Shown piece after piece: positions 48,811 through 62,571 of a stretch of DNA of 64,000 nucleotides. Position 1 is the stretch's first letter, and every line of letters starts with the position of its first letter. The stretch comes from Planctomycetota bacterium. Lineage in GTDB: Bacteria > Planctomycetota > B15-G4 > SIAN01. A program made the translations under genes and the position numbers. The notes beneath the pieces were generated by a model that saw only the letters and a list, made by a program, of their open reading frames with translations, had not been told where the DNA came from and made no database searches. The stretch is taken from contig JANNXA010000050.1 in NCBI GenBank assembly GCA_031409275.1, positions 128,001 to 192,000 of the forward strand, in the 5' to 3' direction.

Positions 48811-50466
<1,656 letters not shown>

Positions 50467-50751: not shown

Positions 50752-52926
50752 ATGCGACGGATCGCCGTTCCGTTGGTCGTCGTCCTGTCGATCGCGCTGC
50801 TGGCGTGGCTCTTCCGTGGTGAAAGGCCGCCGCGCCTCGCGGTGCAGCCGGCCGCGCCACGATCCGTCGCGGACCAGCCCTCCGAGCCGCCCGCCGCCGT
50901 CGAGGCCACGGCAGTCGCCGCACGCGAACCACTGCCCGACTCGCCAGCGGAGCGCGCGGCGCCGCCTCCAGTCGCCGACAGCGAAGCAGTCGCGCCGTCG
51001 ACGACCAGTGACTACCCGGGCCGCATCGTGCTGCGCGACGTCGAAGGACACCCGATCGCGGCTGGATCAGGGATCCTGGAAGGCTGGCTCAAAAGCACCG
51101 GGAGCAGCTTCGGAAGCGGACCGATCGCGGTGCATGAAGGGAGCTTCCGCCTCCCCTTGCCCGACCGCTGCGGCTTCGTGCCGTCGCGCCTCGACCTCAA
51201 CGACGAGCTGGTGTGGACCGATGCGACCGCGGTCGAACTCGATTCGCACGGCGAGTTGGTGATCGAGGCGCGCCGCGTTCCGCCGATGCGGCTGCACGTC
51301 GTCGACGCGAATACGCAGCAGGACCTCGAAGGAGTCGATGTCGTCGCGCTCGCCGGCGGGGTGTTCGACGGCGTCGACCAACCGGGCGAGATCGCTCCCG
51401 AGGACCGGCTGGTCGTCGACGGACGTTCGCCACTGACGCTCGCCCCGCGACTCCGCCACGGCGACATCCGCTGGACGCTGACGGTCGCCGTCCACGCACC
51501 CGGCTACGCATGGCGCCTCCTGCCGCTCGACTTCGCGCGCGGCGGCGACGAGATCGTCGCGCTCGATCGGGGCGCGGACCTCGACGTCACGATCGCTGGC
51601 GAGTTCGAGCGCGGCGAACCCGGGCCACTCCGCTGGGACGACTCGCGGCCGCAGCTGCGCGTGCGCCACCTCGCCGCCGATTCGGAGCCGGCGCTCGATC
51701 GCGAGAGGTTGTTGGAACGCGCCCGCGCGGCGATCGCCGAACTCGACGAGGAGGAGCGCGACGAGCTCTTCCCGGACGGTGTCGTGCCCGACGAATCGAT
51801 GCTGCTCGAATTCATCGAAGCGCAACGCGAGGCGGCGCTGAACTTCCGCGCCATGGCGCGGCTCATCGCGCAGCGGCTCCCCGAGCCTGCCGGCGCGACC
51901 CGCTTCAAGGGGCTTCCGCTCGGACGCGTTCTCGTGGCGCTGGAGCAAGGCGAACACTGGTCGAACCCGAGGGTGCTCGCCGAGAGCGTGATCGAACTCA
52001 CCGCCGGCACGACGTCCGCGGTGCAGCTTCAGGTGCGTCCCGATGATCGGCCGGCCGGCGTGCCCCTCGCCGGACGGATCCGCCTCTCGCCGAGTTGGAA
52101 CGACAGCGACCCGCTCGACCTCTGTTTCGAACCGATCGCCGTACCGGGCGCGACGAGTGCGGAGGAGTTCAACATCGACGTGAAGCTGATCGGCTCGCCG
52201 GATGGGCCGGAGTGGCACCGCTTCGACGCCGGCCGAAGGCTGCCGGGTCGCTGGCTGGTCACTTCCTACGCCTACGACTTCCAGGTGATGGTCGACACCG
52301 GACCGGCGGGACGCAGCGATGCCGAGATCGTGATCGGCGATCCGGCCGATGCGTGGATCAAGCTGATCGACGCGAGCAGCGGCCAGACCATCGCCGTCGA
52401 GGACAAGCAGGGGCTCCACTGGTGGTGCCAGCGACCCGCCGAGAGCAACGGTGGAAGCCTCGAGAGTGCGCGCTTCAACGAACCGGCCGACGCGTGGTAC
52501 TTCCGCGCGCCGGAGGGCCGCGTCGGACTCTCCCTTCGCGACGAAGCGGGACTGCGCTACCGCGAACCCGACGATTGGGTCGTCACCCTCTCGCCCGGCC
52601 GCAACGACCTGACGTTCACGCTGCAGCGGGTGCAGTCGCTCGAGCTGCGCTTCGAACTCGACGGGCGCCCGCTCCCTGAATCGACCCTCGCGTTCCAGTT
52701 CGAGATCGACTCGAGCTCGGCTCGCGCCATCAACACGGCCAATGGCAAGAAGCTGCGCGGCTCCAGATGGAGCCGCTCGAAGCTCTGGTTCACTTTCCCG
52801 AAGCCGGGCCGCTGGCGGATCGAGGTGGCCCCGCTGCCCGGCTATGCGTCGGTCGAGCCGTTCGAACTCGACATCGCGGAAGGAGAACTCGTCGTCCACC
52901 GTCTCGCGCTGGTGCGTGAGGAGTAG
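50752..52926 (+). CDS. Membrane-anchored beta-sandwich (carboxypeptidase-regulatory-like) repeat protein
   Basis: N-terminal TM, Pro/Ala linker, repeated beta-rich modules (VHAPGYA, F.GLP.G, PGRW.IEV..LPGY). Confidence 0.7.
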
Positions 52927-52944: not shown

Positions 52945-55191
52945 CTACGGCGCCCCCGCCGGCTTGCTCGCGGCGCCGGCGGCCGCGGCGGCGGGCGCCG
53001 CCTTCAGCCGCTCGATCTGCTTGGCGAGGAAGTCGACGTCGCTGAACGGGTCGCCGCCGGTGCGCTTCCAGCGGACGCGGCCCTGCGCGTCGACGAGGAT
53101 GGTCGAGTGGAGCTCGATCTCCTCGAAGTCGTCGTAGCTCGCGAAACGGCGCGCGTTCTCGTGGTTCGCGTCGGAGAGCAGCCGGAAGGCGAGCCCGCCG
53201 AGCTTCTCCGACTCGCGATTCTTCTCGGGCGGCGTGCTGCTGACGCCAAGCAGGACCGTGTCTCCGAAGCCACCCTCCTTCGCTTTCGCGTTCAGCTTCT
53301 GCAGTTGCTCGACGCAGTGGACGCACTCTTCGTCGAGATAGAAGACCAGCAGCACGTTTTTGCCGCGGAAGTCGGCGAGGCGGACGCGGGTGCCGGCGGC
53401 ATCGACGACGTCGAGCTCGGGCGCAGCGAATGGTTCCCAATCGAGCGGCCCGACGTCGGCGTTGGTGTTGCGGTCGTAGGGCCGTTCCGGAGCAGGCGTC
53501 GCGGCCACCGGCTGCTCGCCGAGCGCCAGCGCCGCGAGCTCGCGCGGCCAGCGCAGCCCAGGATCGGCCGCTGACCAGACGTCGGCGAAGCGGCCAGCCG
53601 CGTCGCGCGCCGCCTCCTTCTCGCCGAGCGCGTGACGCGCCTGCGCGAGCGCCGCCAACACGAAGGCGTCATTGGGCAACGCGTCGAGCGCTCGCTGGTA
53701 GGCGGCGACGGCGAGGCGGAGATCCCCGTGGCGGCGGAAGAGCTCGCCGAGCACGTACCACGCAGACCACGGATCGTCGGGCGGGTCGTTCTCGTAGCCG
53801 TCCACGGCGCGCTGCTCGGTCTCGAACTCGCCGGCCTGCGTGAGGCGCTGAACCGCGCCCAGCAGGTCGCCGTCCGCCTCGCGCAACAGCCCCTCCGCGA
53901 TCGCGAGACGCATCGACAGCGGCCCGCCCACGGCGTCCCCCTTCTCCACCGCCTCGACCCGCTTCTTCAGCTTCGCGAGTCGCGGACGCGCCTCTTCCGT
54001 CTTGCCCGTCGCGAGGAGGGCGATCGCCTCGGCGAACGCGCGCGAATCCTTGTCGCTGTCGAGCTCGCGCCACGGGATCGCGCCCGATTTGAGGATCTCG
54101 TCCCACCGCTCGAAACGCAGCAGTCCTCGCACCAGCGCCTTCATCCCTTCGTCGATGTCGCCGTAGCTGCCGTCCTTGTTCTTCTCCGGATCGCGCGGCG
54201 CATCGATCAGGTCGCGCGCGCCGGAGCGCGCCGCCGCCTCCATCCCGAGCTGCTCCTGGATGTGACAGAGGTAGTTCCTGTTGTGGGCGAAGTTCCACGA
54301 CTCGAAGGGGAAGGCGAGGTGGTCGTTCATGTACTGCAGCTCGACGCGCGTCGCGCGGTCCATCGAGCGCGCCGCCTCATGCCACATGCCGATCTTGCTG
54401 TAGATGTGGCCGGGCATGTGGTTGGCGTGGCCGCTCTTCGGCGCCACCGGGCCGTAACGCGCGCAGCTCGCGAGCGCTTGCACCGGATCGGCGCGATCCC
54501 AGTTGTGGATGCGGTAGTGGTGGGCGCCAGGATGATCGGGCTGCTGCGCGAAGACCTGCTGCAGCACGAGCTCGTTGCCGATCGCGTTCTTCTGCCGGAT
54601 CGAGAAGAGCGCGAACAACGCCTTGGCCTCGACGTCGTCGGGATAGGCCAGCACGACCTTCTGCAGCCTGGAGGCCAGCCTCTTCTGCGGCTCCTTCTCG
54701 CCGGCGCGGTAGGAGTCGGCCCACGCCTCGAGGTAGGCGCGCTCGCGCGGCGTCACCTTCGCCTTGCGCTTCACCGCCTCGGCGAGGAAGTCGCGATAGC
54801 GCTGGTTCTCCGGCTCTTCGAAATTGGCGTCGACGAACCAGGTGAGCCCCGTGCGCGCGAGCCCCCAGTAGGCCATGGCGCACTCGGGATCGAGCTTGAG
54901 GCACCAGCGGAACGACCGCTCCGCCTCCTCGAACCAGAAGTTGTGCAGCAGCGTGTTGCCCTGGTCGAACCACTGCTGCACCTCGGCCTGCACCGCTGGC
55001 ACGTTCACCGTGATCGGGAAGTGCGTCGTGCCGATCCCTTCGAACTTCCAAGGCCGCTGGCGCATGCCCGAGTCGAAGGCGCTGCCGTGCTTGCTGTGGC
55101 CCGGGCCGTCGCTGACGAAGGGCGCAACCAGCGGCGTGGCGAGCGGCGCAGCGAACACGAGGGCGACGGCGGCGGCGAGCGCGGGGTGCAT
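52945..55191 (-). CDS. Secreted TPR protein with C-terminal AhpC/TSA redoxin domain
   Basis: Signal peptide, LDPECAMAYWG, PGAHHYRIH, HMPGHIY, C-terminal LADFRGKNVLLVFY..CVHC..LLSD. Confidence 0.85.
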   Translation of the reverse strand: MHPALAAAVALVFAAPLATPLVAPFVSDGPGHSKHGSAFDSGMRQRPWKFEGIGTTHFPITVNVPAVQAEVQQWFDQGNTLLHNFWFEEAERSFRWCLKLDPECAMAYWGLARTGLTWFVDANFEEPENQRYRDFLAEAVKRKAKVTPRERAYLEAWADSYRAGEKEPQKRLASRLQKVVLAYPDDVEAKALFALFSIRQKNAIGNELVLQQVFAQQPDHPGAHHYRIHNWDRADPVQALASCARYGPVAPKSGHANHMPGHIYSKIGMWHEAARSMDRATRVELQYMNDHLAFPFESWNFAHNRNYLCHIQEQLGMEAAARSGARDLIDAPRDPEKNKDGSYGDIDEGMKALVRGLLRFERWDEILKSGAIPWRELDSDKDSRAFAEAIALLATGKTEEARPRLAKLKKRVEAVEKGDAVGGPLSMRLAIAEGLLREADGDLLGAVQRLTQAGEFETEQRAVDGYENDPPDDPWSAWYVLGELFRRHGDLRLAVAAYQRALDALPNDAFVLAALAQARHALGEKEAARDAAGRFADVWSAADPGLRWPRELAALALGEQPVAATPAPERPYDRNTNADVGPLDWEPFAAPELDVVDAAGTRVRLADFRGKNVLLVFYLDEECVHCVEQLQKLNAKAKEGGFGDTVLLGVSSTPPEKNRESEKLGGLAFRLLSDANHENARRFASYDDFEEIELHSTILVDAQGRVRWKRTGGDPFSDVDFLAKQIERLKAAPAAAAAGAASKPAGAP

Positions 55192-55278: not shown

Positions 55279-58050
55279 ATGCGCGGACACTCGATCGGAC
55301 GAAGCAGCCGGCGGGCCGCGCGCGCGATCGTCGCGCTGCTGCTGCTGATCCCGGCACTGCTCGCGTGGCTCCTCCTACGCGAACCGCCGTCGCGCCGTGC
55401 AGCACCGGCCGTCGACGACCCGACACCACGGGACGCGACGTCGCACGACTTGGGACACGACGACCCGACGAGAACGGGCGACGGCGACGCGGTGTCGAGC
55501 GCGCCATCGGTCGAAGTTCCCGATCCCGCGCGCGAGTCGGTCGTCGCCGACTTCGTCGAGACGATCGGCCCCACCATCGTCGTCCTCGAACGCGAGACGG
55601 GCCGGCCGCTGCCCGATGCCGGCGTCTGGTGGCTCGCGCGCGACGAGGTCGAGGCGGCTCGATGGCGCGAGCTGCAACGCGGCGACGCGGCGACGCTCGA
55701 AGCGCTGGAGCACGATGGCCACGCGGTCGAACTCGACGCGTTGGCCGGTGCCGAGCTGCCGTGGCGCGCGAGCCTCGCCCGTCTTTGGGTGCGCGACGGC
55801 GACCGCGAGGCGCTGCGCACGATCGCGCTCGATGAGCGCGCGCACCATCGGATCGCGCTGGCACGCGCCGAAGCGCTAACGCTTCGCGCCGTCGATGGCG
55901 ACGGCCGCCCAGTGCGCGACGTGCCGGTGGCGCTGGCCGCGTGCCCCGTCGTCGACGGCAACCTCACGCCGCAGCGCGAGGAGCCGCTCCACCTCGTCGA
56001 TGCCGTGACCGATCGCGATGGCGAGGTGCGTTGCGAACGAGGGAGCCGCTGGCTCGACGAGCACGTCGATGGCGACGGGCTGGCGACGCGACAAGCGCTG
56101 ATCGCTGCGCTGGCGTTTCCGTGCCGCGACCGTCGCACGACCGCGATCGACCCGCGCGACGGCTGCAAGGCGCCCATCGAGCTGCGCCCGCCGCTTCTGG
56201 CGGACTTGCGATTGCGCGCGGCGCTGGCGAACGACGCGCCGCGCCTGGTGCCGGTGATCGTCCAGATCGCCTGCGCCGAGCCGATCGCAGGCCCGCTGCC
56301 GAGCTTCGTCGCGCAACGGGCGCTGCCGGCGGGCGAAGCGATCGAACAGGTGATCGAGGCTGCGGGCCGCTTCCGGATCGAGGCGGAGAGCGACGACGGG
56401 AAACTGGTCTCTGATCCGATCGTCGTGACTGCCGGTGCCGTGGCGACGACGACCGAGCTGCTGATCCGGCTGAAGCCGCGCCCGCCGCCGCCGCTCGGCA
56501 CGATCGTCGTGCTCGATCCCGGCAACCGGCCGCTGGCGACGACCGAGGTCGCATGGCAGCCGGCCGACAAGGTCGACTTCCCGAAGCCAGCGGCGATGCT
56601 GCTCGGCACGACCGATCCGCGTGGCCGGCTCGCGGTGAAGCTCGAATCGCTGCCGCGGCCGCTTCCGGGAGAGTCGTCGGCGCTGCAGCTCTACGCCGGC
56701 CTGATCGACGGAGGCGACGGCGGCGCACGCCTGCGCGGCCAGCTCGTGCTGGTGAAGTCGAGCTACGCGGATGGCGAAATGCTGGGACAGGTGGTGATGG
56801 CCGAAGTGCCGCGGATCGTGGCGGGACGCGTCGTCAGCGGGAGCGGCGCCGGGCTGCGCGACGTGGCGCTGTCGATCGTCGATCGCGATCGTGCGTGGAT
56901 GGACCACGGGCGGCTCGCGCTGGTCGAGCAGTCGCTTGGCCTGCGGGTCCATTGGAACACGCGCAGCGGCGAGGAGGGACGCTTCGAGGTCCACTCGAGG
57001 CCAACCTGCACCGATGTGGTGATCCGCGCCGAACTCCGGGGCTGGCACCATGTGGCGACCGTGGAGGAAGCCCGCCTCCAGCCGCACGACGAAGCATCGG
57101 TCGGGGCGGATCAGGCAACGGTCGTGATGCGGCGCAACGGTCGCGCGCGCGGTCGGCTGCTGGTCGAGCCGGGCGTCTCGATCGCCCGCCTCGCACTGCG
57201 AAGCGATCCCGACGATCCCGATGGCGCTCCGCTGTTGCGCGCAGAGCTCGCCGACGACGGTCGCTTCGAGGTCGAGGGAATCCCGGGTCGCTTCACGCTG
57301 CAGGTCGTGTCGCGCACCGACCCGGCCGTCGCCGGCCAATCGTGGACGAGAGCGGCACACGTGCTCGCGGAAGTGGCCGACCTCGCGTGGGTCGAGGATC
57401 AGTTCATCGTCGACCCGCGCCTCGATCCGATCGACCTGCGCGGCGCACTCGAGACGATCGAGGTCGTCGCGCGGACACCGGAGGGCGAGCCGATCGCCGG
57501 CGCGCGCCTCTTCCTCGTGGGCAGCCGGGACGATGTCATCGAGCTCGCACCGACCGCCGATCCCTTCGGCCGCGCGGTCGTCTCTGTGCCGATCGGAACG
57601 CCGCGCCTCGTCGTCGGCACTCGCGATCGGTTGGTGCAGTGGACGCGTTTCGATCGACCACAGTGGGAGCTCGTGCTGCCGCCAGCTCCGCGCGTGCGAC
57701 TCGTGCTGCCCGGCGCCGACCACCCGCTGCGGGGCATGCCGGCGGTGCTCGAGCTGCGCCAAGCCGACTTCGGCGACGCCACCAACGACGTTGCGCGGAG
57801 CCTGGGCCCGTTCGAGTGCCGCCGGGTCGGTGACGACGACTCCCGCGAGATGTTGCTGGAGTCGGGTGTCCCCTTCTTGGGCACCTGGTACGCCCGCTTC
57901 CTCACCTCGCCCTCGGATCGCAGCGCGCTCTGGTCGGTCCGTGTCGAAGTCCGCGCAAACGATCCGATCGTCGAAGTGCGCGTCGAGCTGACCGCGGCGC
58001 AGGTAGAGCAGATCGAGCAGCGGAGGGGCCCGCTACCATCCCGCCGATGA
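55279..58050 (+). CDS. Membrane-anchored beta-sandwich repeat protein
   Basis: N-terminal TM ([17 protein letters not shown]), repeated VD.DGRPV / TD..G / GRVV modules; AGGGGA RBS; ATGA overlap with next gene. Confidence 0.7.
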
Positions 58051-58988
58051 TCGAATTCCAGCGCTTGATCCTCGGCGATGCGCGGCGCAACGAGCTCTTC
58101 ACCGAGGCGCTGCGGCGCGTGATCGTGCCGGGCAGGACCACGGTCGCCGACCTCGGCGCCGGGACCGGGTACCTCTCGTTCGTGGCGCGCCGGCTTGGCG
58201 CCAGGCACTGCCACCTCGTCGAGATGTCGGAGCTGATCGGGCTCGCGAAGCGGCTGGCAAAGGCGAACGGGATCGACGGCTGCACCTTCGTCTACGGCCA
58301 CTCGACCGAGATCGACCCGCCGCCGCAGGTCGATCTCGTCGTCAGCGAGACGCTCGGCAATCTGGCGTTCGAGGAGAACCTGCTCGAGACGATGCAGGAC
58401 GCGCGGCGCTGGCTGGCGCCGGGCGGGACGATCGTGCCGCAGCGCGTGCGGCAGTTCGCGGTCCCGATCACCGAGCCGCGCTACTTCACCGAGCTCGACG
58501 TCTTCTCTCGTCTCGGGTCCAGACTCGACTTCACGTTGGCGCGCACCATCGCCACCGACAACGTCTACGTGCGCCGCTTCGCGCCCGCCGACTTGCTGCA
58601 GGAGGGGCGCGCAGCGCAGTGCCTCGACGACGTCGACTTGCGCAAGCGAACGGGCAGCGTGCGACGCGGCACCGCGGAATGGCGGCTCCCGAAGGCGACG
58701 CCGCTGCTCGGCTTCGCGCTGTGGTGGGAGTGCGAACTGATCGCCGATGCGCCCGACCTGATCCTGTCGACCTCGCCGCTGGCGCCGCCGACCCACTGGG
58801 AGCAGATCTGGCTGCCGCCGCGCGCCACCCTGCAGGCCAGGGCGGGCGATACGTTGCGGCTCGAACTGGAATGCGACTCGCGGCCGCAGGTGAAGATCAA
58901 CGTGAAATGGAAGACGACGCTGCTCGATCGCGCCGGCAAGGTGCGCGAACAGACGCAGCAGGACATGAAGAAGGGGTACATCGAATGA
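58047..58988 (+). CDS. PRMT-like (protein arginine methyltransferase fold) SAM-dependent methyltransferase
   Basis: [60 protein letters not shown]. Confidence 0.85.
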
Positions 58989-60202
58989 CGTTCCCTGCGC
59001 TCGCCGGCGCCATCGCCCTGCTCGCTGCCGGAATCACGCTCGCGCCGCAGGAGTCGACCGCGGAGAAGGCGCGGCGAATCCACGCCGACCTGCCGGTGAT
59101 CGATGGCCACAACGACCTGCCGTGGGAGATCCGCGAGAAGCTGAAGGGCGACGCGCAAGCCGTCGACTTCCGCCAGCTGCAGCCGCAGTTCCACACCGAT
59201 CTGCTGCGGTTGAAGCAAGGCGGCGTCGGCGCGCAGTTCTGGTCGGCATGGGTCGCCTTCGACGAGGAGAAGTCGACCACCAGCCTCTTCATCGAGCAGA
59301 TCCTGCAAATCCATCGACTGGTCGCCGCCTACCCCGAGCAGCTCGAGTTCGCGCTCACCGCCGATGAGATCGAGTCGATCCGCAAGCGCGGCAAGGTCGC
59401 GTGCCTGATCGGCGTCGAAGGCGGCCACGCGATCGACGATTCGCTGGCGAACCTGCGCGTGCTCTTCCAGCTGGGCGCGCGCTACATGACGCTCACCCAC
59501 GGCGGCACGCTGTCGTGGGCCGACTCGGCCACCGATGTCGCGAAGCACGGCGGCCTCACCGCGTTTGGCGAAGAGGTCGTCCGCGAGATGAACCGCCTCG
59601 GGATGCTGGTCGACCTCTCGCACGTCTCGCCGGAAACGATGGACGATGCGCTGCGCGTGACGAAAGCGCCGGTCATCTGCTCGCACAGCTCGGCGCGCGC
59701 CATCGCCGACCATCCGCGCAACGTCCCCGACGCGCAGCTCACCGCGATCGGCGCGAACGGCGGCGTGGTCATGGTGAACTTCTTCCCCGGCTTCGTCGTG
59801 CCAGGCTCCGCGCAGACGCTGGTCGACGGCCTCGCCCATCGCTTCGAGCTGAAGGCGCAGGGCATGAAGGGCGAGGAGCTCTCGAAGACGATGGATGCGT
59901 GGAACGCCGACCATCCGCTCGACCGCGGCTCGCTTGACGACGTGATCGCCCACATCGAGCACCTTGCGCAGGTCGCCGGCAAGGAGCATGTCGGGATCGG
60001 CTCCGACTTCGACGGCATCCCGTCGGTGCCGGTCGGCCTCGAAGACGTCTCCAAGTACCCGGCCATCACCGCGCGGCTGCTCGAACGCGGCTGGAGCGAG
60101 AAAGAGGTGCGCGGCCTGCTCGGCGCCAACGTCCTGCGCGCCCTGCGCGAGGCCGAGCGCGTGGCGCGCGCCGCCCGCGACGCTCGCGACGTCCGCAAGT
60201 GA
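58985..60202 (+). CDS. Membrane dipeptidase (peptidase M19), secreted
   Basis: [38 protein letters not shown]; signal peptide; ATGA overlap. Confidence 0.94.
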
Positions 60203-60218
60203 GCGGGCGGTCGCTGCG

Positions 60219-60992
60219 ATGACCACCGCGCCGCGCGTGCTCGCGCTCTTCGCCCATCCCGACGATGCCGAGCTCCTTTGCGGCGGCACGCTCGCGCTGC
60301 TCTCCGAGCTGGGCTGGCGCGTCCACCTCGCCACGATGACGCCGGGCGACCTCGGCTCGGCGACGCTCGATCGCGAGGCGATCGCGGCGATCCGTCGCGA
60401 GGAAGGGAAACGCGCGGCCACGCTGCTGAAGGCGACGTGGCATTGCCTCGAAGCGCGCGACTTCGCCGTCCTCTACGGCGAAGAGATCTGCCGTCGCGCG
60501 ACGGCGCTGATCCGCAACGTCGTGCCCGACCTCGTGCTGACCCACTCGCCGATCGACTACCTCGCCGATCACGAAGAGACCGCACGCATCGCCGCGCAGG
60601 CGTGCTTCGCCGCGCCGGTCCGTCTTTATGCGACCGACGACGACGCGCCAGCGACCGCCACGATCGCGCCGCTCTACTACGCCGATCCGGTCGAGGGGAT
60701 CGACCGCTTCGGCGACGTGGTGCGACCGCGCCTCGTCGTCGACGTCGAGTCGACCTGGCCGATCAAGGAGCTGTTGCTGCAATGCCACGGCAGCCAGCGC
60801 GAATGGATGGCGCGACAGCACGGCTCCGCAGACTTCGTCGCGACCGCGAAGTCATGGGCCGCGAAGCGCGGCGCGTTGGCCGGGATGGCGCTCGGCGAGG
60901 GTTTTCGCCCCCACCACGGCCACGCCTTCCCGCGGACCGCGATCCTCGAGACGACGCTCGGCCGGAGGTGTCGGGTGCCGATGTCGTCGTGA
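60219..60992 (+). CDS. PIG-L family deacetylase
   Basis: AHPDDAE..CGGTL, RREE, LTH...Y..DH, HGSQ. Confidence 0.9.
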   Translation: MTTAPRVLALFAHPDDAELLCGGTLALLSELGWRVHLATMTPGDLGSATLDREAIAAIRREEGKRAATLLKATWHCLEARDFAVLYGEEICRRATALIRNVVPDLVLTHSPIDYLADHEETARIAAQACFAAPVRLYATDDDAPATATIAPLYYADPVEGIDRFGDVVRPRLVVDVESTWPIKELLLQCHGSQREWMARQHGSADFVATAKSWAAKRGALAGMALGEGFRPHHGHAFPRTAILETTLGRRCRVPMSS

Positions 60993-61038: not shown

Positions 61039-62571
61039 TCAGTCCACTCGCCCCCCCGCCGCGCGGGCGGCCGCGACCAGCGCGCCGCTCTTCACCAGCT
61101 CGGTGAGCGCTTCGAGGTCGGGGGCGAGGTAGCGATCGTCGGCCAGCGTCTTCACGCGGCGACGCACCAGCCGATGGACCGCCTGCAGCGGGGCCGTCGT
61201 GCGCAGCTTCTTCTCGAAGTCGAGCCCCTGCGCCGCGCACAGCAACTCGATGGCCACGACACGCTCGGCGCACTCGACGATCTGCAGCGCCTTGCGCGCC
61301 GCGATCGGCCCCATCGAGACGTGGTCCTCTTTGTTGGCCGAGGTCGGAATCGAGTCGACCGAGGCGGGAAAGGAGAGCGCCTTGCACTCGCTCACCAGCG
61401 CGGCGGCGACCACCTGCGGGATCATGAAACCGGAGTTGATGCCGGGCCTGGGCGTGAGGAACGCGGGCAGGCCGGAGAGATCGGGATTGACCAGGTTCTC
61501 GGTGCGCCGCTCGCTGATCGAAGCGAGGTCGGCGATGGCGGCCGCGATGCGATCGGCGGTGGCGGCGATCGGTTGCGCGTGGAAATTGCCGCCCGAGAGC
61601 ATCTCGCCCTCTTCCGCGAAGACGAGCGGGTTGTCGGTCGACGCGTTGATCTCGATCTCGACCACGCGGCGCGCCTCGACCAGCGCGTCGCGACAGGCGC
61701 CGTGCACCTGCGGCGCGCAGCGCATCGAGTAGGGATCCTGCACGCGCCCGCAGTCGGCGTGCGAGGCGAGGATCGGGCTGCCGTCGAGCAAACCGTAGAG
61801 GTTCTTCGCAACGCGAAGCTGGCCGGGATGGGGCCGCGCTTCGTGGATGCGCCGATCGAACGCCTTGTTCGTCCCCTTCAGCGCCTCGATGGTGAGCGCG
61901 CAGGCGAGGTCGGCCGTGCGCGCGAGGTTCTCCGCCCGCAGCAGTGCCTGGGCGCAGATCGCGGTCGTCACCTGCGTGCCGTTGATCAGCGAGATCCCTT
62001 CCTTCGCCTGCAACCGCAGCGGCTCGATGCCCGCCTTCTTCAGCGCCGCCGCGATCGGCAGCGAGCGACCGCGCAGGCGCGCGTCGTCGCCTTCGCCGAT
62101 CAGCGCCAGCGCCAGATGGGCCAGCGGTGCGAGGTCGCCCGATGCGCCCACCGATCCCTGTTCCGGCACCGCCGGGACGAGGTCGGCCGCGAGCAGCGCC
62201 GCGAGCTTCTCGACGACCGCCAGGCGCACGCCGCTGCGACCGGTCGCGAAGGTGCGCGCGCGCAACACGATCAGCACCCGCACCAGCTCGGGCGAGAGCG
62301 GACGGCCGACGCCGCACGCATGGCTGCGCAGCAGGTTCACCTGGAGCTGCTCGAGCTCGGCCGCGCCGATCCGCTCGCGCGAGAGTTTGCCGAAGCCGGT
62401 GTTGACGCCGTAGACGGTGGCGCCGGAGCGCAGCATCCGCTCGACCACTTTGCGAGCGGCCTTCACCTTGCGCCGGACATCGGCACCCACGGCGAGCGTG
62501 ACCGCTTCGCCGGCGAAGATCGGAGCGAGGTCGTCGAGGGTCAACGGCGTGCTGGTGAAGGTGAGCTTCAT
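61039..62571 (-). CDS. hutH: Histidine ammonia-lyase
   Basis: YGVNTGFG, SHACGVG, GSVGASGDLAPL (MIO ASG), QDPYSMRC, SGGNFH, EDHVSMG. Confidence 0.97.
   Translation of the reverse strand: MKLTFTSTPLTLDDLAPIFAGEAVTLAVGADVRRKVKAARKVVERMLRSGATVYGVNTGFGKLSRERIGAAELEQLQVNLLRSHACGVGRPLSPELVRVLIVLRARTFATGRSGVRLAVVEKLAALLAADLVPAVPEQGSVGASGDLAPLAHLALALIGEGDDARLRGRSLPIAAALKKAGIEPLRLQAKEGISLINGTQVTTAICAQALLRAENLARTADLACALTIEALKGTNKAFDRRIHEARPHPGQLRVAKNLYGLLDGSPILASHADCGRVQDPYSMRCAPQVHGACRDALVEARRVVEIEINASTDNPLVFAEEGEMLSGGNFHAQPIAATADRIAAAIADLASISERRTENLVNPDLSGLPAFLTPRPGINSGFMIPQVVAAALVSECKALSFPASVDSIPTSANKEDHVSMGPIAARKALQIVECAERVVAIELLCAAQGLDFEKKLRTTAPLQAVHRLVRRRVKTLADDRYLAPDLEALTELVKSGALVAAARAAGGRVD

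Follow-up and report, generated by a model that had tools for sequence, protein, structure and literature searches.

A stand-alone bacterial gene with the protein arginine methyltransferase fold, carried by a planctomycete and by several unrelated lineages

A stretch of 64,000 nucleotides from a Planctomycetota bacterium (assembly GCA_031409275.1, contig JANNXA010000050.1, positions 128,001 to 192,000; hereafter the window) carries at 58047..58988 (+) a stand-alone gene whose 313-residue product, P0001, belongs to the protein arginine methyltransferase (PRMT) fold, as assigned from its translation, Pfam domains, PDB matches, a structural model and fold searches. Judged from its sequence and model, P0001 is a true PRMT-fold enzyme with the arginine-binding residues intact. 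On balance, we read it as a dimeric, S-adenosylmethionine (SAM)-dependent protein-arginine N-methyltransferase that would act on the cell's own proteins as a cytoplasmic housekeeping enzyme. The gene is an uncharacterized bacterial PRMT variant, and is neither a eukaryotic import, nor part of a multi-gene system, nor categorically new. The new aspect is the way in which its clade is retained: across several unrelated lineages the gene stands alone, usually in a single copy.

Sequence motifs and predicted structure

The open reading frame (ORF) is intact over 313 codons without an internal stop, within a window of about 70% GC. Along the protein, the motifs follow each other as ILGDARRN (residues 8-15), VADLGAGTG (33-41), the double-E loop with E101 and E110 nine residues apart, a conserved stretch at 122-131 and another at 240-253. 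The N-terminal helix (residues 1-15, with E3, H/Q5, R6, D11, R14 and N15) is encoded at 58047..58091 (+) and, by conservation and model, no YFxxY helix stands ahead of it. It is followed by the SAM-binding motif I (58143..58169, +), the double-E loop of residues 100-110 (58344..58376, +), a dimerization arm of three modeled helices (residues 140-176; 58464..58574, +), the THW loop (residues 249-251, reading THWEQ in P0001; 58791..58799, +) and, beyond the last barrel strand, a clade-specific C-terminal DxxxG motif (D306-G310; 58962..58976, +). Using the motif definitions of PMC12925635, PMC8226133 and PMC12153873, motif I, the acidic post-I residue (E59), motif II and motif III are all present, with the G/A of the post-I motif unmatched.

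Residue conservation was counted over the 132 core rows of alignment A2. D11, R14, E101, G104, E110, H250 and W251 are invariant, E59 is kept in 131 rows, N15 in 128, R6 in 126, G310 in 129 and D306 in 125. The conserved positions specific to the clade are E3, R6, N15, N105, N172, S204, R206, D277, D306 and G310. YFxxY occurs within the first 40 residues of none of the 132 rows, and in 118 of them just one to three residues precede position 2. I8 and L112 fall in the two columns occupied by methionine in the eukaryotic type I rows, which we take to be M48 and M155 in PRMT1 numbering; across the clade, position 8 is L in 77 rows, I in 44 and M in 10, and position 112 is I in 66, L in 48 and M in 4. 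An earlier note on this DNA, made from the letters alone, had already read the ordered motif series, the nine-residue glutamate spacing, the THW loop, the missing YFxxY helix and the Ile/Leu replacements from the single protein, and translation and alignment bear it out on each of these. Its description of the arm as short does not stand, since the 37 residues equal those of insect PRMT6-like rows; the other eukaryotic type I rows have 41-47 (CARM1-like 46-47). Compared with the orthologue in genome G004, divergence is lowest at second codon positions (0.09, against 0.24 at third positions).

Domain searches assign a class I methyltransferase domain to residues 31-135 and PRMT_C (PF22528) to residues 212-278, the latter with 32.3 bits at a cut-off of 27. 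A PrmA match in Pfam (PF06325, 25.4 bits, profile positions 153-256 of 296) is confined to the SAM-binding stretch, and no NCBIfam model exceeds its cut-off for P0001. The best 60 of 65 PDB sequence matches are all PRMTs, with CARM1 on top (E 1.4e-23); with a 150-row profile, the top match becomes PRMT6 at 4e-55. Bacterial clusters in the ESM Atlas are labeled PrmA and at the same time bear PRMT_C.

The AlphaFold2 model built on alignment A2 reaches a mean predicted local distance difference test (pLDDT) score of 96.8 and a predicted template modeling (pTM) score of 0.92. Among the Foldseek rows listed, only PRMTs occur, with a TM-score of 0.86 to PRMT1 (1or8). A fold search over 48,161 representative chains places PRMTs in each of the first 15 ranks, with 283-306 residues aligned and Z values of 23.4-31.2 (among them PRMT2 at 31.2, PRMT3 at 30.9, CARM1 at 30.8, PRMT5 at 28.9 and TbPRMT7 at 27.3); PrmA comes next, at rank 16, with Z 13.3 over 139 residues. 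Model residue 1 aligns with CARM1 residue 156. The beta-barrel expected from the letters is thus recovered by PF22528 above its cut-off, by the model and by the fold searches, which included superposition on PRMT1 and PRMT7; that the protein is not PrmA-like is likewise upheld, with Z 13 against 23-31 for PRMTs and NCBIfam PrmA models below their cut-offs.

A canonical head-to-tail, arm-mediated homodimer is predicted. When two copies were modeled with S-adenosylhomocysteine, the score was 0.80 against 0.05 for the best of three controls, a value that may draw on the predictor's memory of solved PRMTs. Agreement between runs covers at least 93% of contacts, and pLDDT is at least 94. In calibration, 20 of 30 solved pairs and 1 of 23 single chains attained this mark, counts that apply only roughly to this case. 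Arm residues 150-174 contact residues 1-19, 40-49 and 61-74 of the partner, as in solved PRMT dimers, and the predicted interface also includes residues 310-313 and 1-3.

Family and phylogeny

Among 7999 scored candidates, 664 proteins match at E 1e-3 or better, and 22 of the best 120 of these have "protein arginine N-methyltransferase 1" as their JGI label. In a set of 1.84 billion representatives, 7123 pass 1e-3 (a total that covers other methyltransferases and eukaryotic PRMTs as well), 3519 pass 1e-10 and 134 pass 1e-30. Clusters labeled Planctomycetota contain the relatives with identities of about 79% and 58%. The motif signature had been taken as defining eukaryotic enzymes and the gene as undescribed. 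Neither view can be kept, given the thousands of related 50% clusters, the JGI labels and the radiation of bacterial PRMT relatives already in print (PMC3417536).

A quick IQ-TREE phylogeny was built from 110 chosen rows (46 of the 80 listed loci, 4 from the own phylum, 46 unlabeled or second-tier, 12 named non-human eukaryotic and, as root, 2 domains from non-ribosomal peptide synthetases [NRPS]), with support from the Shimodaira-Hasegawa-like approximate likelihood ratio test (SH-aLRT) and no bootstrap; eukaryotic sampling comprised PRMT6-like and CARM1-like sequences only. P0001 falls in a clade of 71 rows (SH-aLRT 99), outside the eukaryotic type I clade (100), and a recent acquisition from eukaryotes is rejected on the tree together with the GC content at third codon positions (GC3). 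Hyphomicrobiaceae, Nevskiales and the source family form compact sub-clades, and the Peribacteria rows are dispersed at the base. Peribacteria as donor was considered and is unsupported: the basal rows are scattered, yet monophyly of Peribacteria is not rejected (approximately unbiased test, p-AU 0.355).

Three further sequences were encountered on the way. P0288, labeled as a metagenome-assembled genome of Deltaproteobacteria and having many metagenomic relatives labeled CARM1, groups with the eukaryotic CARM1-like rows (SH-aLRT 99), possibly as a eukaryote-to-bacterium transfer or as a mis-binned record. P0273 and P0274 are eukaryote-type CARM1-like proteins that have the SETLGN loop in common with the present clade and were picked up by the search because of this shared word; P0274 is placed in the eukaryotic branch, and the shared loop is probably convergence.

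Distribution

At least 80 loci were found in GTDB genomes and grouped by lineage from record titles, with 19 of the 64 database parts covered; among the matches listed, 25 belong to Peribacteria and kin, 31 to Alphaproteobacteria (mainly Hyphomicrobiaceae) and 24 to Gammaproteobacteria (including Nevskiales). Lineage counts were made with profile A1 at E 1e-25, each including its seed genome (G061, G062 or G063), with genomes of any completeness admitted for Peribacteria; they are descriptive, since related genomes are not independent. Of the 121 genomes of the Peribacteria order, which measure 0.8-1.7 Mb, 69 have the gene; it is also present in 71 of 101 Hyphomicrobiaceae and in 25 of 101 Nevskiales (24 of 100 without one unpublished genome). 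Nearly all carriers have a single copy, double matches being mostly genes split over contigs. In the source family, six of eight genomes have a full-length orthologue, whereas none was found in 34 genomes from other families of the same order; across Planctomycetota, the gene occurs in 5 of 251 genomes and in two families only. It was not found on viral contigs or plasmids (E 1e-15 for plasmids). The distribution is that of a gene which rarely passes between distant groups and, once acquired, is inherited vertically over long periods. In the source lineage the gene is native, with a GC3 of 0.93 like its neighbors and with the family orthologues just given. Cultured carriers include Hyphomicrobium sp. 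GJ21, Solimonas variicoloris DSM 15731, Solimonas terrae and Fontimonas.

Genomic neighborhood

In the window, the gene stands after a ~920-residue exported-type protein (55279..58050, +) and before an M19 dipeptidase with a hydrophobic N-terminus (58985..60202, +; PF01244, E 1e-114) and a PIG-L protein, inside the interval between hutU (urocanase; 48811..50466, -) and hutH. Both ends of the gene overlap the neighboring gene by ATGA. These overlaps, from which the earlier note had concluded that the gene is native, are real, and so is its native character by GC3 and orthologues, but the upstream overlap is not conserved: the ~920-residue ORF (GC3 0.85) has no match in the relatives' loci L102-L105 and L084. 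The dipeptidase adjoins the gene in G004, G001 and G002 and is missing from the G005 and G007 loci, and is thus limited to the genus. hutU is divergent from the PRMT gene in six of six family carriers, directly so in G002 and G005.

A -10-like hexamer, TACCAT, lies 7 nucleotides 5' of the start codon within the final codons of the upstream ORF (58034..58039, +). A TAnnnT hexamer is found 7-58 nucleotides upstream in all six family carriers, as exact TACCAT in four of them, against a genome background for TACCAT of 0.001 per 100 nucleotides; none is found in G053. The PRMT gene probably has its own promoter here, giving a near-leaderless transcript that would start in the upstream ORF. Because relatives do not have the upstream ORF and the hexamer is conserved, the upstream overlap is regarded as incidental, and coupling to the upstream gene is rejected.

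No conserved partner gene emerged from ORF clustering across 89 loci; families that recur across lineages are generic (alpha/beta hydrolase, ABC transporter, acyl-CoA dehydrogenase), and gene order, compared over 77 of the 80 listed loci, is lineage-specific. Neighbor genes were called by a composition-based heuristic, by which some genes are missed. The idea of a system formed with the neighbors is therefore abandoned, as the upstream ORF is absent in relatives, the dipeptidase is genus-only and no partner recurs. Lineage-specific neighbors elsewhere include a SpoU methylase, NnrU, an acyl-CoA thioesterase, HrpB, an NAD-dependent ligase and MscL. A SpoU/TrmH RNA methylase lies directly upstream and co-oriented in 15 of 31 listed alphaproteobacterial loci, with gaps mostly of 3-90 nucleotides. 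In Hyphomicrobiaceae (L025, L034, L044, L053, L060 and others), the PRMT gene is the last of a tight co-oriented run with this methylase and a second SAM methyltransferase, presumably RlmI-like. Among the 52 recurring neighbor clusters (of 167 groups) scanned against Pfam, there were no NRPS, polyketide synthase, radical SAM or PqqD families and no recurring secretion genes. A search for fusions gave 12 matches among 7993 long candidates, none of them close, which is weak evidence.

Some further features of these loci deserve mention. hutU and hutH (61039-62571, -) flank the M19 dipeptidase and PIG-L deacylase genes (58985-60992, +) with no hutI or hutG in between. The ORFs at 50752-52926 (+) and 55279-58050 (+) both encode large exported-type proteins with no Pfam match over cut-off, a GC3 of 0.85 and no match in the relatives' loci, and are lineage-specific insertions in the hutU-hutH interval. 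A 748-residue protein (52945-55191, -) joins tetratricopeptide repeats (TPR) to a C-terminal AhpC/TSA redoxin and is kept in the genus (G001, G004). In G050 (L107:6431-11010), a 29% identical PRMT-like gene is accompanied by a radical SAM gene, a 93-residue ORF that we take to be PqqD-like (no Pfam match at 1e-12) and an NTP_transf_5 nucleotidyltransferase, an arrangement that looks like ribosomal peptide tailoring.

Proposed function and alternatives

By homology, a guanidino acceptor is well supported. A protein as the bearer of this group is suggested because the gene is retained as a stand-alone single copy, above all in the small Peribacteria genomes, and has no biosynthetic context; a housekeeping protein-arginine methyltransferase is favored over natural-product tailoring because the clade is kept, usually in one copy, across lineages. 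With SAM as methyl donor, the enzyme would modify arginine at a terminal guanidino nitrogen in at least one protein of its own cell. By analogy with characterized PRMTs, D11, R14 and E59 would bind SAM, E101 and E110 would clamp the guanidinium and H250 would orient it, and one subunit's arm is predicted to pack against its partner's SAM domain. With less assurance, the targets may be arginines exposed in disordered tails, basic or glycine-rich, of proteins that bind RNA or serve translation, possibly varying by host; the product may be monomethyl- and possibly asymmetric dimethyl-arginine, considering that the THW loop has its His, yet YFxxY and the active-site Met residues are missing; and the C-terminal DxxxG tail may substitute for the missing N-terminal helix. 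A more far-reaching version, tentative and in our view rather doubtful, would make the clade a dedicated bacterial protein-arginine writer acting on conserved RNA-binding or ribosomal proteins, kept in Peribacteria of ~1.2 Mb and spread over four unrelated lineages, with the DxxxG tail replacing the YFxxY helix.

Several points weigh against a protein-arginine enzyme. Candidate substrates were compared in five PRMT carriers of different lineages (for RGG [arginine-glycine-glycine] tails, the comparison comprised carriers only), and no candidate was common to all five. The RNA recognition motif (RRM) family was found in two, an Arg-rich N-terminus of uS5 in three, and DEAD-box tails with RGG/GGR in four, the Peribacterium having none; an elongation factor P (EF-P) with an Arg at its tip occurred in one, and histones, for which PF00808 was the only histone-fold family tried, in none. 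Each was accordingly dropped as the shared substrate. Moreover, the loss of YFxxY could mean another acceptor, the closest bacterial PRMT relatives are linked to secondary metabolism in print (PMC3417536), and an arginine methyltransferase from a natural-product cluster, SznE, is already known (PMC12637814). Finally, no match to the gene turned up in 43% of the sampled Peribacteria, 30% of Hyphomicrobiaceae and 75% of Nevskiales genomes, some of which will be incomplete assemblies; the gene is therefore probably dispensable.

Within the source genome, RGG-rich tails occur in an RRM protein, a DEAD-box helicase, a pseudouridine-synthase-like protein, a TPR-like protein and uS5, some of these names being provisional. 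The RRM protein is encoded at G000:C33:144537-145124 and the DEAD-box helicase at C27:93578-95212. The strongest RGG array of this genome is in a protein of ~850 residues (G000:C9:179220-182147, -), whose N-terminus is a long series of RGG/DRGPR repeats, with a helical repeat region after it. The EF-P of the Peribacterium (L136, G061:C12:12214-12381) has the tip loop KQGRQGG with an unusual Arg; the other four genomes have PGKG.

Of the alternatives, we regard as unlikely, though deserving of attention, a small-molecule guanidino N-methyltransferase that modifies free arginine, agmatine or a like guanidine in the manner of SznE. The guanidinium clamp would fit such a substrate equally, the N-terminal helix of the type I protein enzymes is missing, the gene of the source family lies amid amino-acid catabolism (hutU, hutH, the M19 dipeptidase and the PIG-L deacylase), and both SznE and a homologue in the saskemycin cluster have been described (PMC12637814). 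However, the hut link is limited to one family with unrelated neighbors elsewhere, no biosynthetic cluster is present, and the gene is kept in over half of the small Peribacteria genomes. These genomes are generally metabolically reduced. Metabolic reduction is also described for the Candidate Phyla Radiation (CPR) in PMC9166423. There is a small chance that the PRMT scaffold now serves an acceptor other than arginine, for instance histidine or the N2 of guanine in RNA: this would suit the SpoU/TrmH methylase upstream of about half of the listed alphaproteobacterial genes, the divergent arrangement with hutU in the source family and the replacement of both active-site Met residues, but the arginine-binding residues are all invariant, RNA N2-methylguanosine methylases reach only Z 11-12 against 23-31 for PRMTs, and neither neighbor link extends across lineages.

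The chance is smaller still that P0001 tailors a natural product, methylating arginine in a ribosomal or non-ribosomal peptide encoded elsewhere. Distant relatives do this or appear set to do so (the NRPS-embedded domains, the G050 relative, proteins of 375-390 residues; PMC3417536), while the present clade has no C-terminal extension and no such neighbors in the 52 recurring clusters, forms a separate branch (SH-aLRT 99) and is inherited within lineages like a core gene. Very improbable, finally, is a foreign target, that is, modification of proteins of a host or competitor; CPR, including Peribacteria, have been proposed to be host-associated (PMC9166423) and a patchy spread over phyla suits a transferable interaction gene, but no export signal is seen in P0001, which starts straight at the SAM-domain helix, secretion genes do not recur nearby and the carriers are mostly free-living.

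If the more far-reaching version above is right, the clade would supply the first bacterial protein writer demonstrated for this fold, together with a model of the minimal ancestral PRMT. The published view assigns bacterial PRMT relatives to secondary metabolism, and this clade behaves like a housekeeping gene instead. Protein arginine methylation itself has been reported in bacteria, for example at R112 of PhoP, for which CheR and other enzymes yet to be identified have been proposed (PMC8546571). Our literature search, with most subscription papers outside its reach, returned neither a stand-alone bacterial PRMT with biochemical characterization nor any mention of the present clade; the surprise is only moderate, because the PRMT fold has already been noted in bacteria. 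Having neither YFxxY nor the active-site Met residues, this naturally occurring PRMT would test the rules of PRMT product specificity, and the cultured carriers make the function directly testable.

Comparison with known methyltransferases

PrmA, the uL11 lysine methyltransferase whose name is a frequent label of these proteins, shares with P0001 the SAM-binding stretch only. The NCBIfam PrmA models score 19-22 bits against cut-offs of 188-269, and a full-length PrmA is present beside the PRMT gene in carriers G062 and G063; no full-length PrmA match was found in the source genome (G000), G061 or G064. With the fold-search Z of 13, the scores and the co-occurring genes rule out PrmA or a PrmA substitute. 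SznE of streptozotocin biosynthesis is, like the enzyme proposed here, a bacterial SAM-dependent arginine methyltransferase (PMC12637814), and the saskemycin cluster contains a 31% identical homologue (same source). SznE differs in being encoded in a biosynthetic cluster. The substrate of SznE is free arginine.

Closer are the bacterial PRMT-like peptide methylases, NRPS-embedded or operon-encoded, which have a homologous domain with the double-E loop and whose radiation has been described (PMC3417536). Nine long NRPS proteins contain a PRMT-like domain with a profile E of 5e-15 or better, and more distant relatives of 375-390 residues have C-terminal extensions. These methylases either have no THW loop or have extensions and biosynthetic neighbors, whereas the present clade stands alone among housekeeping genes: a C-terminal docking extension, an NRPS fusion and biosynthetic neighbors were not found in it, the neighbor scan having covered 52 of the 167 groups, with the other 115 being singletons.

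With PRMT5 (type II) and PRMT7/PRMT9, P0001 shares the core fold (Z 24.7-28.9), and many relatives match the Pfam PRMT5_C family; PRMT5 and PRMT7/PRMT9 likewise do not have YFxxY. Unlike them, P0001 is without TIM barrel, TPR or second module: at 313 residues it opens at the SAM-domain helix, and neither the N-terminal TIM barrel nor PLxxN, the type II motif of PMC12925635, is present. In contrast to type III PRMT7, the His of the THW loop is kept (H250), where TbPRMT7 has Q329 (PMC8226133). The eukaryotic type I enzymes are the nearest in structure, with the same Rossmann fold, arm and barrel (PRMT2, PRMT3, CARM1 and PRMT6; Z 29.8-31.2, root mean square deviation 2.5-3.1 Å over 294-306 residues) and, across PRMT1, 2, 3, 6, 8 and CARM1, the same double-E loop and a THW loop with His; an arm-mediated dimer is predicted for P0001. 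The protein is 21-25% identical to them, does not have their YFxxY helix and has Ile/Leu for both active-site Met residues; its clade reads SETLGNxAxEE in the loop where type I enzymes read SExMGxxLxxExM, has the additional DxxxG tail and forms its own clade in the tree. P0001 is therefore a member of the PRMT structural family that falls outside types I, II and III as defined.

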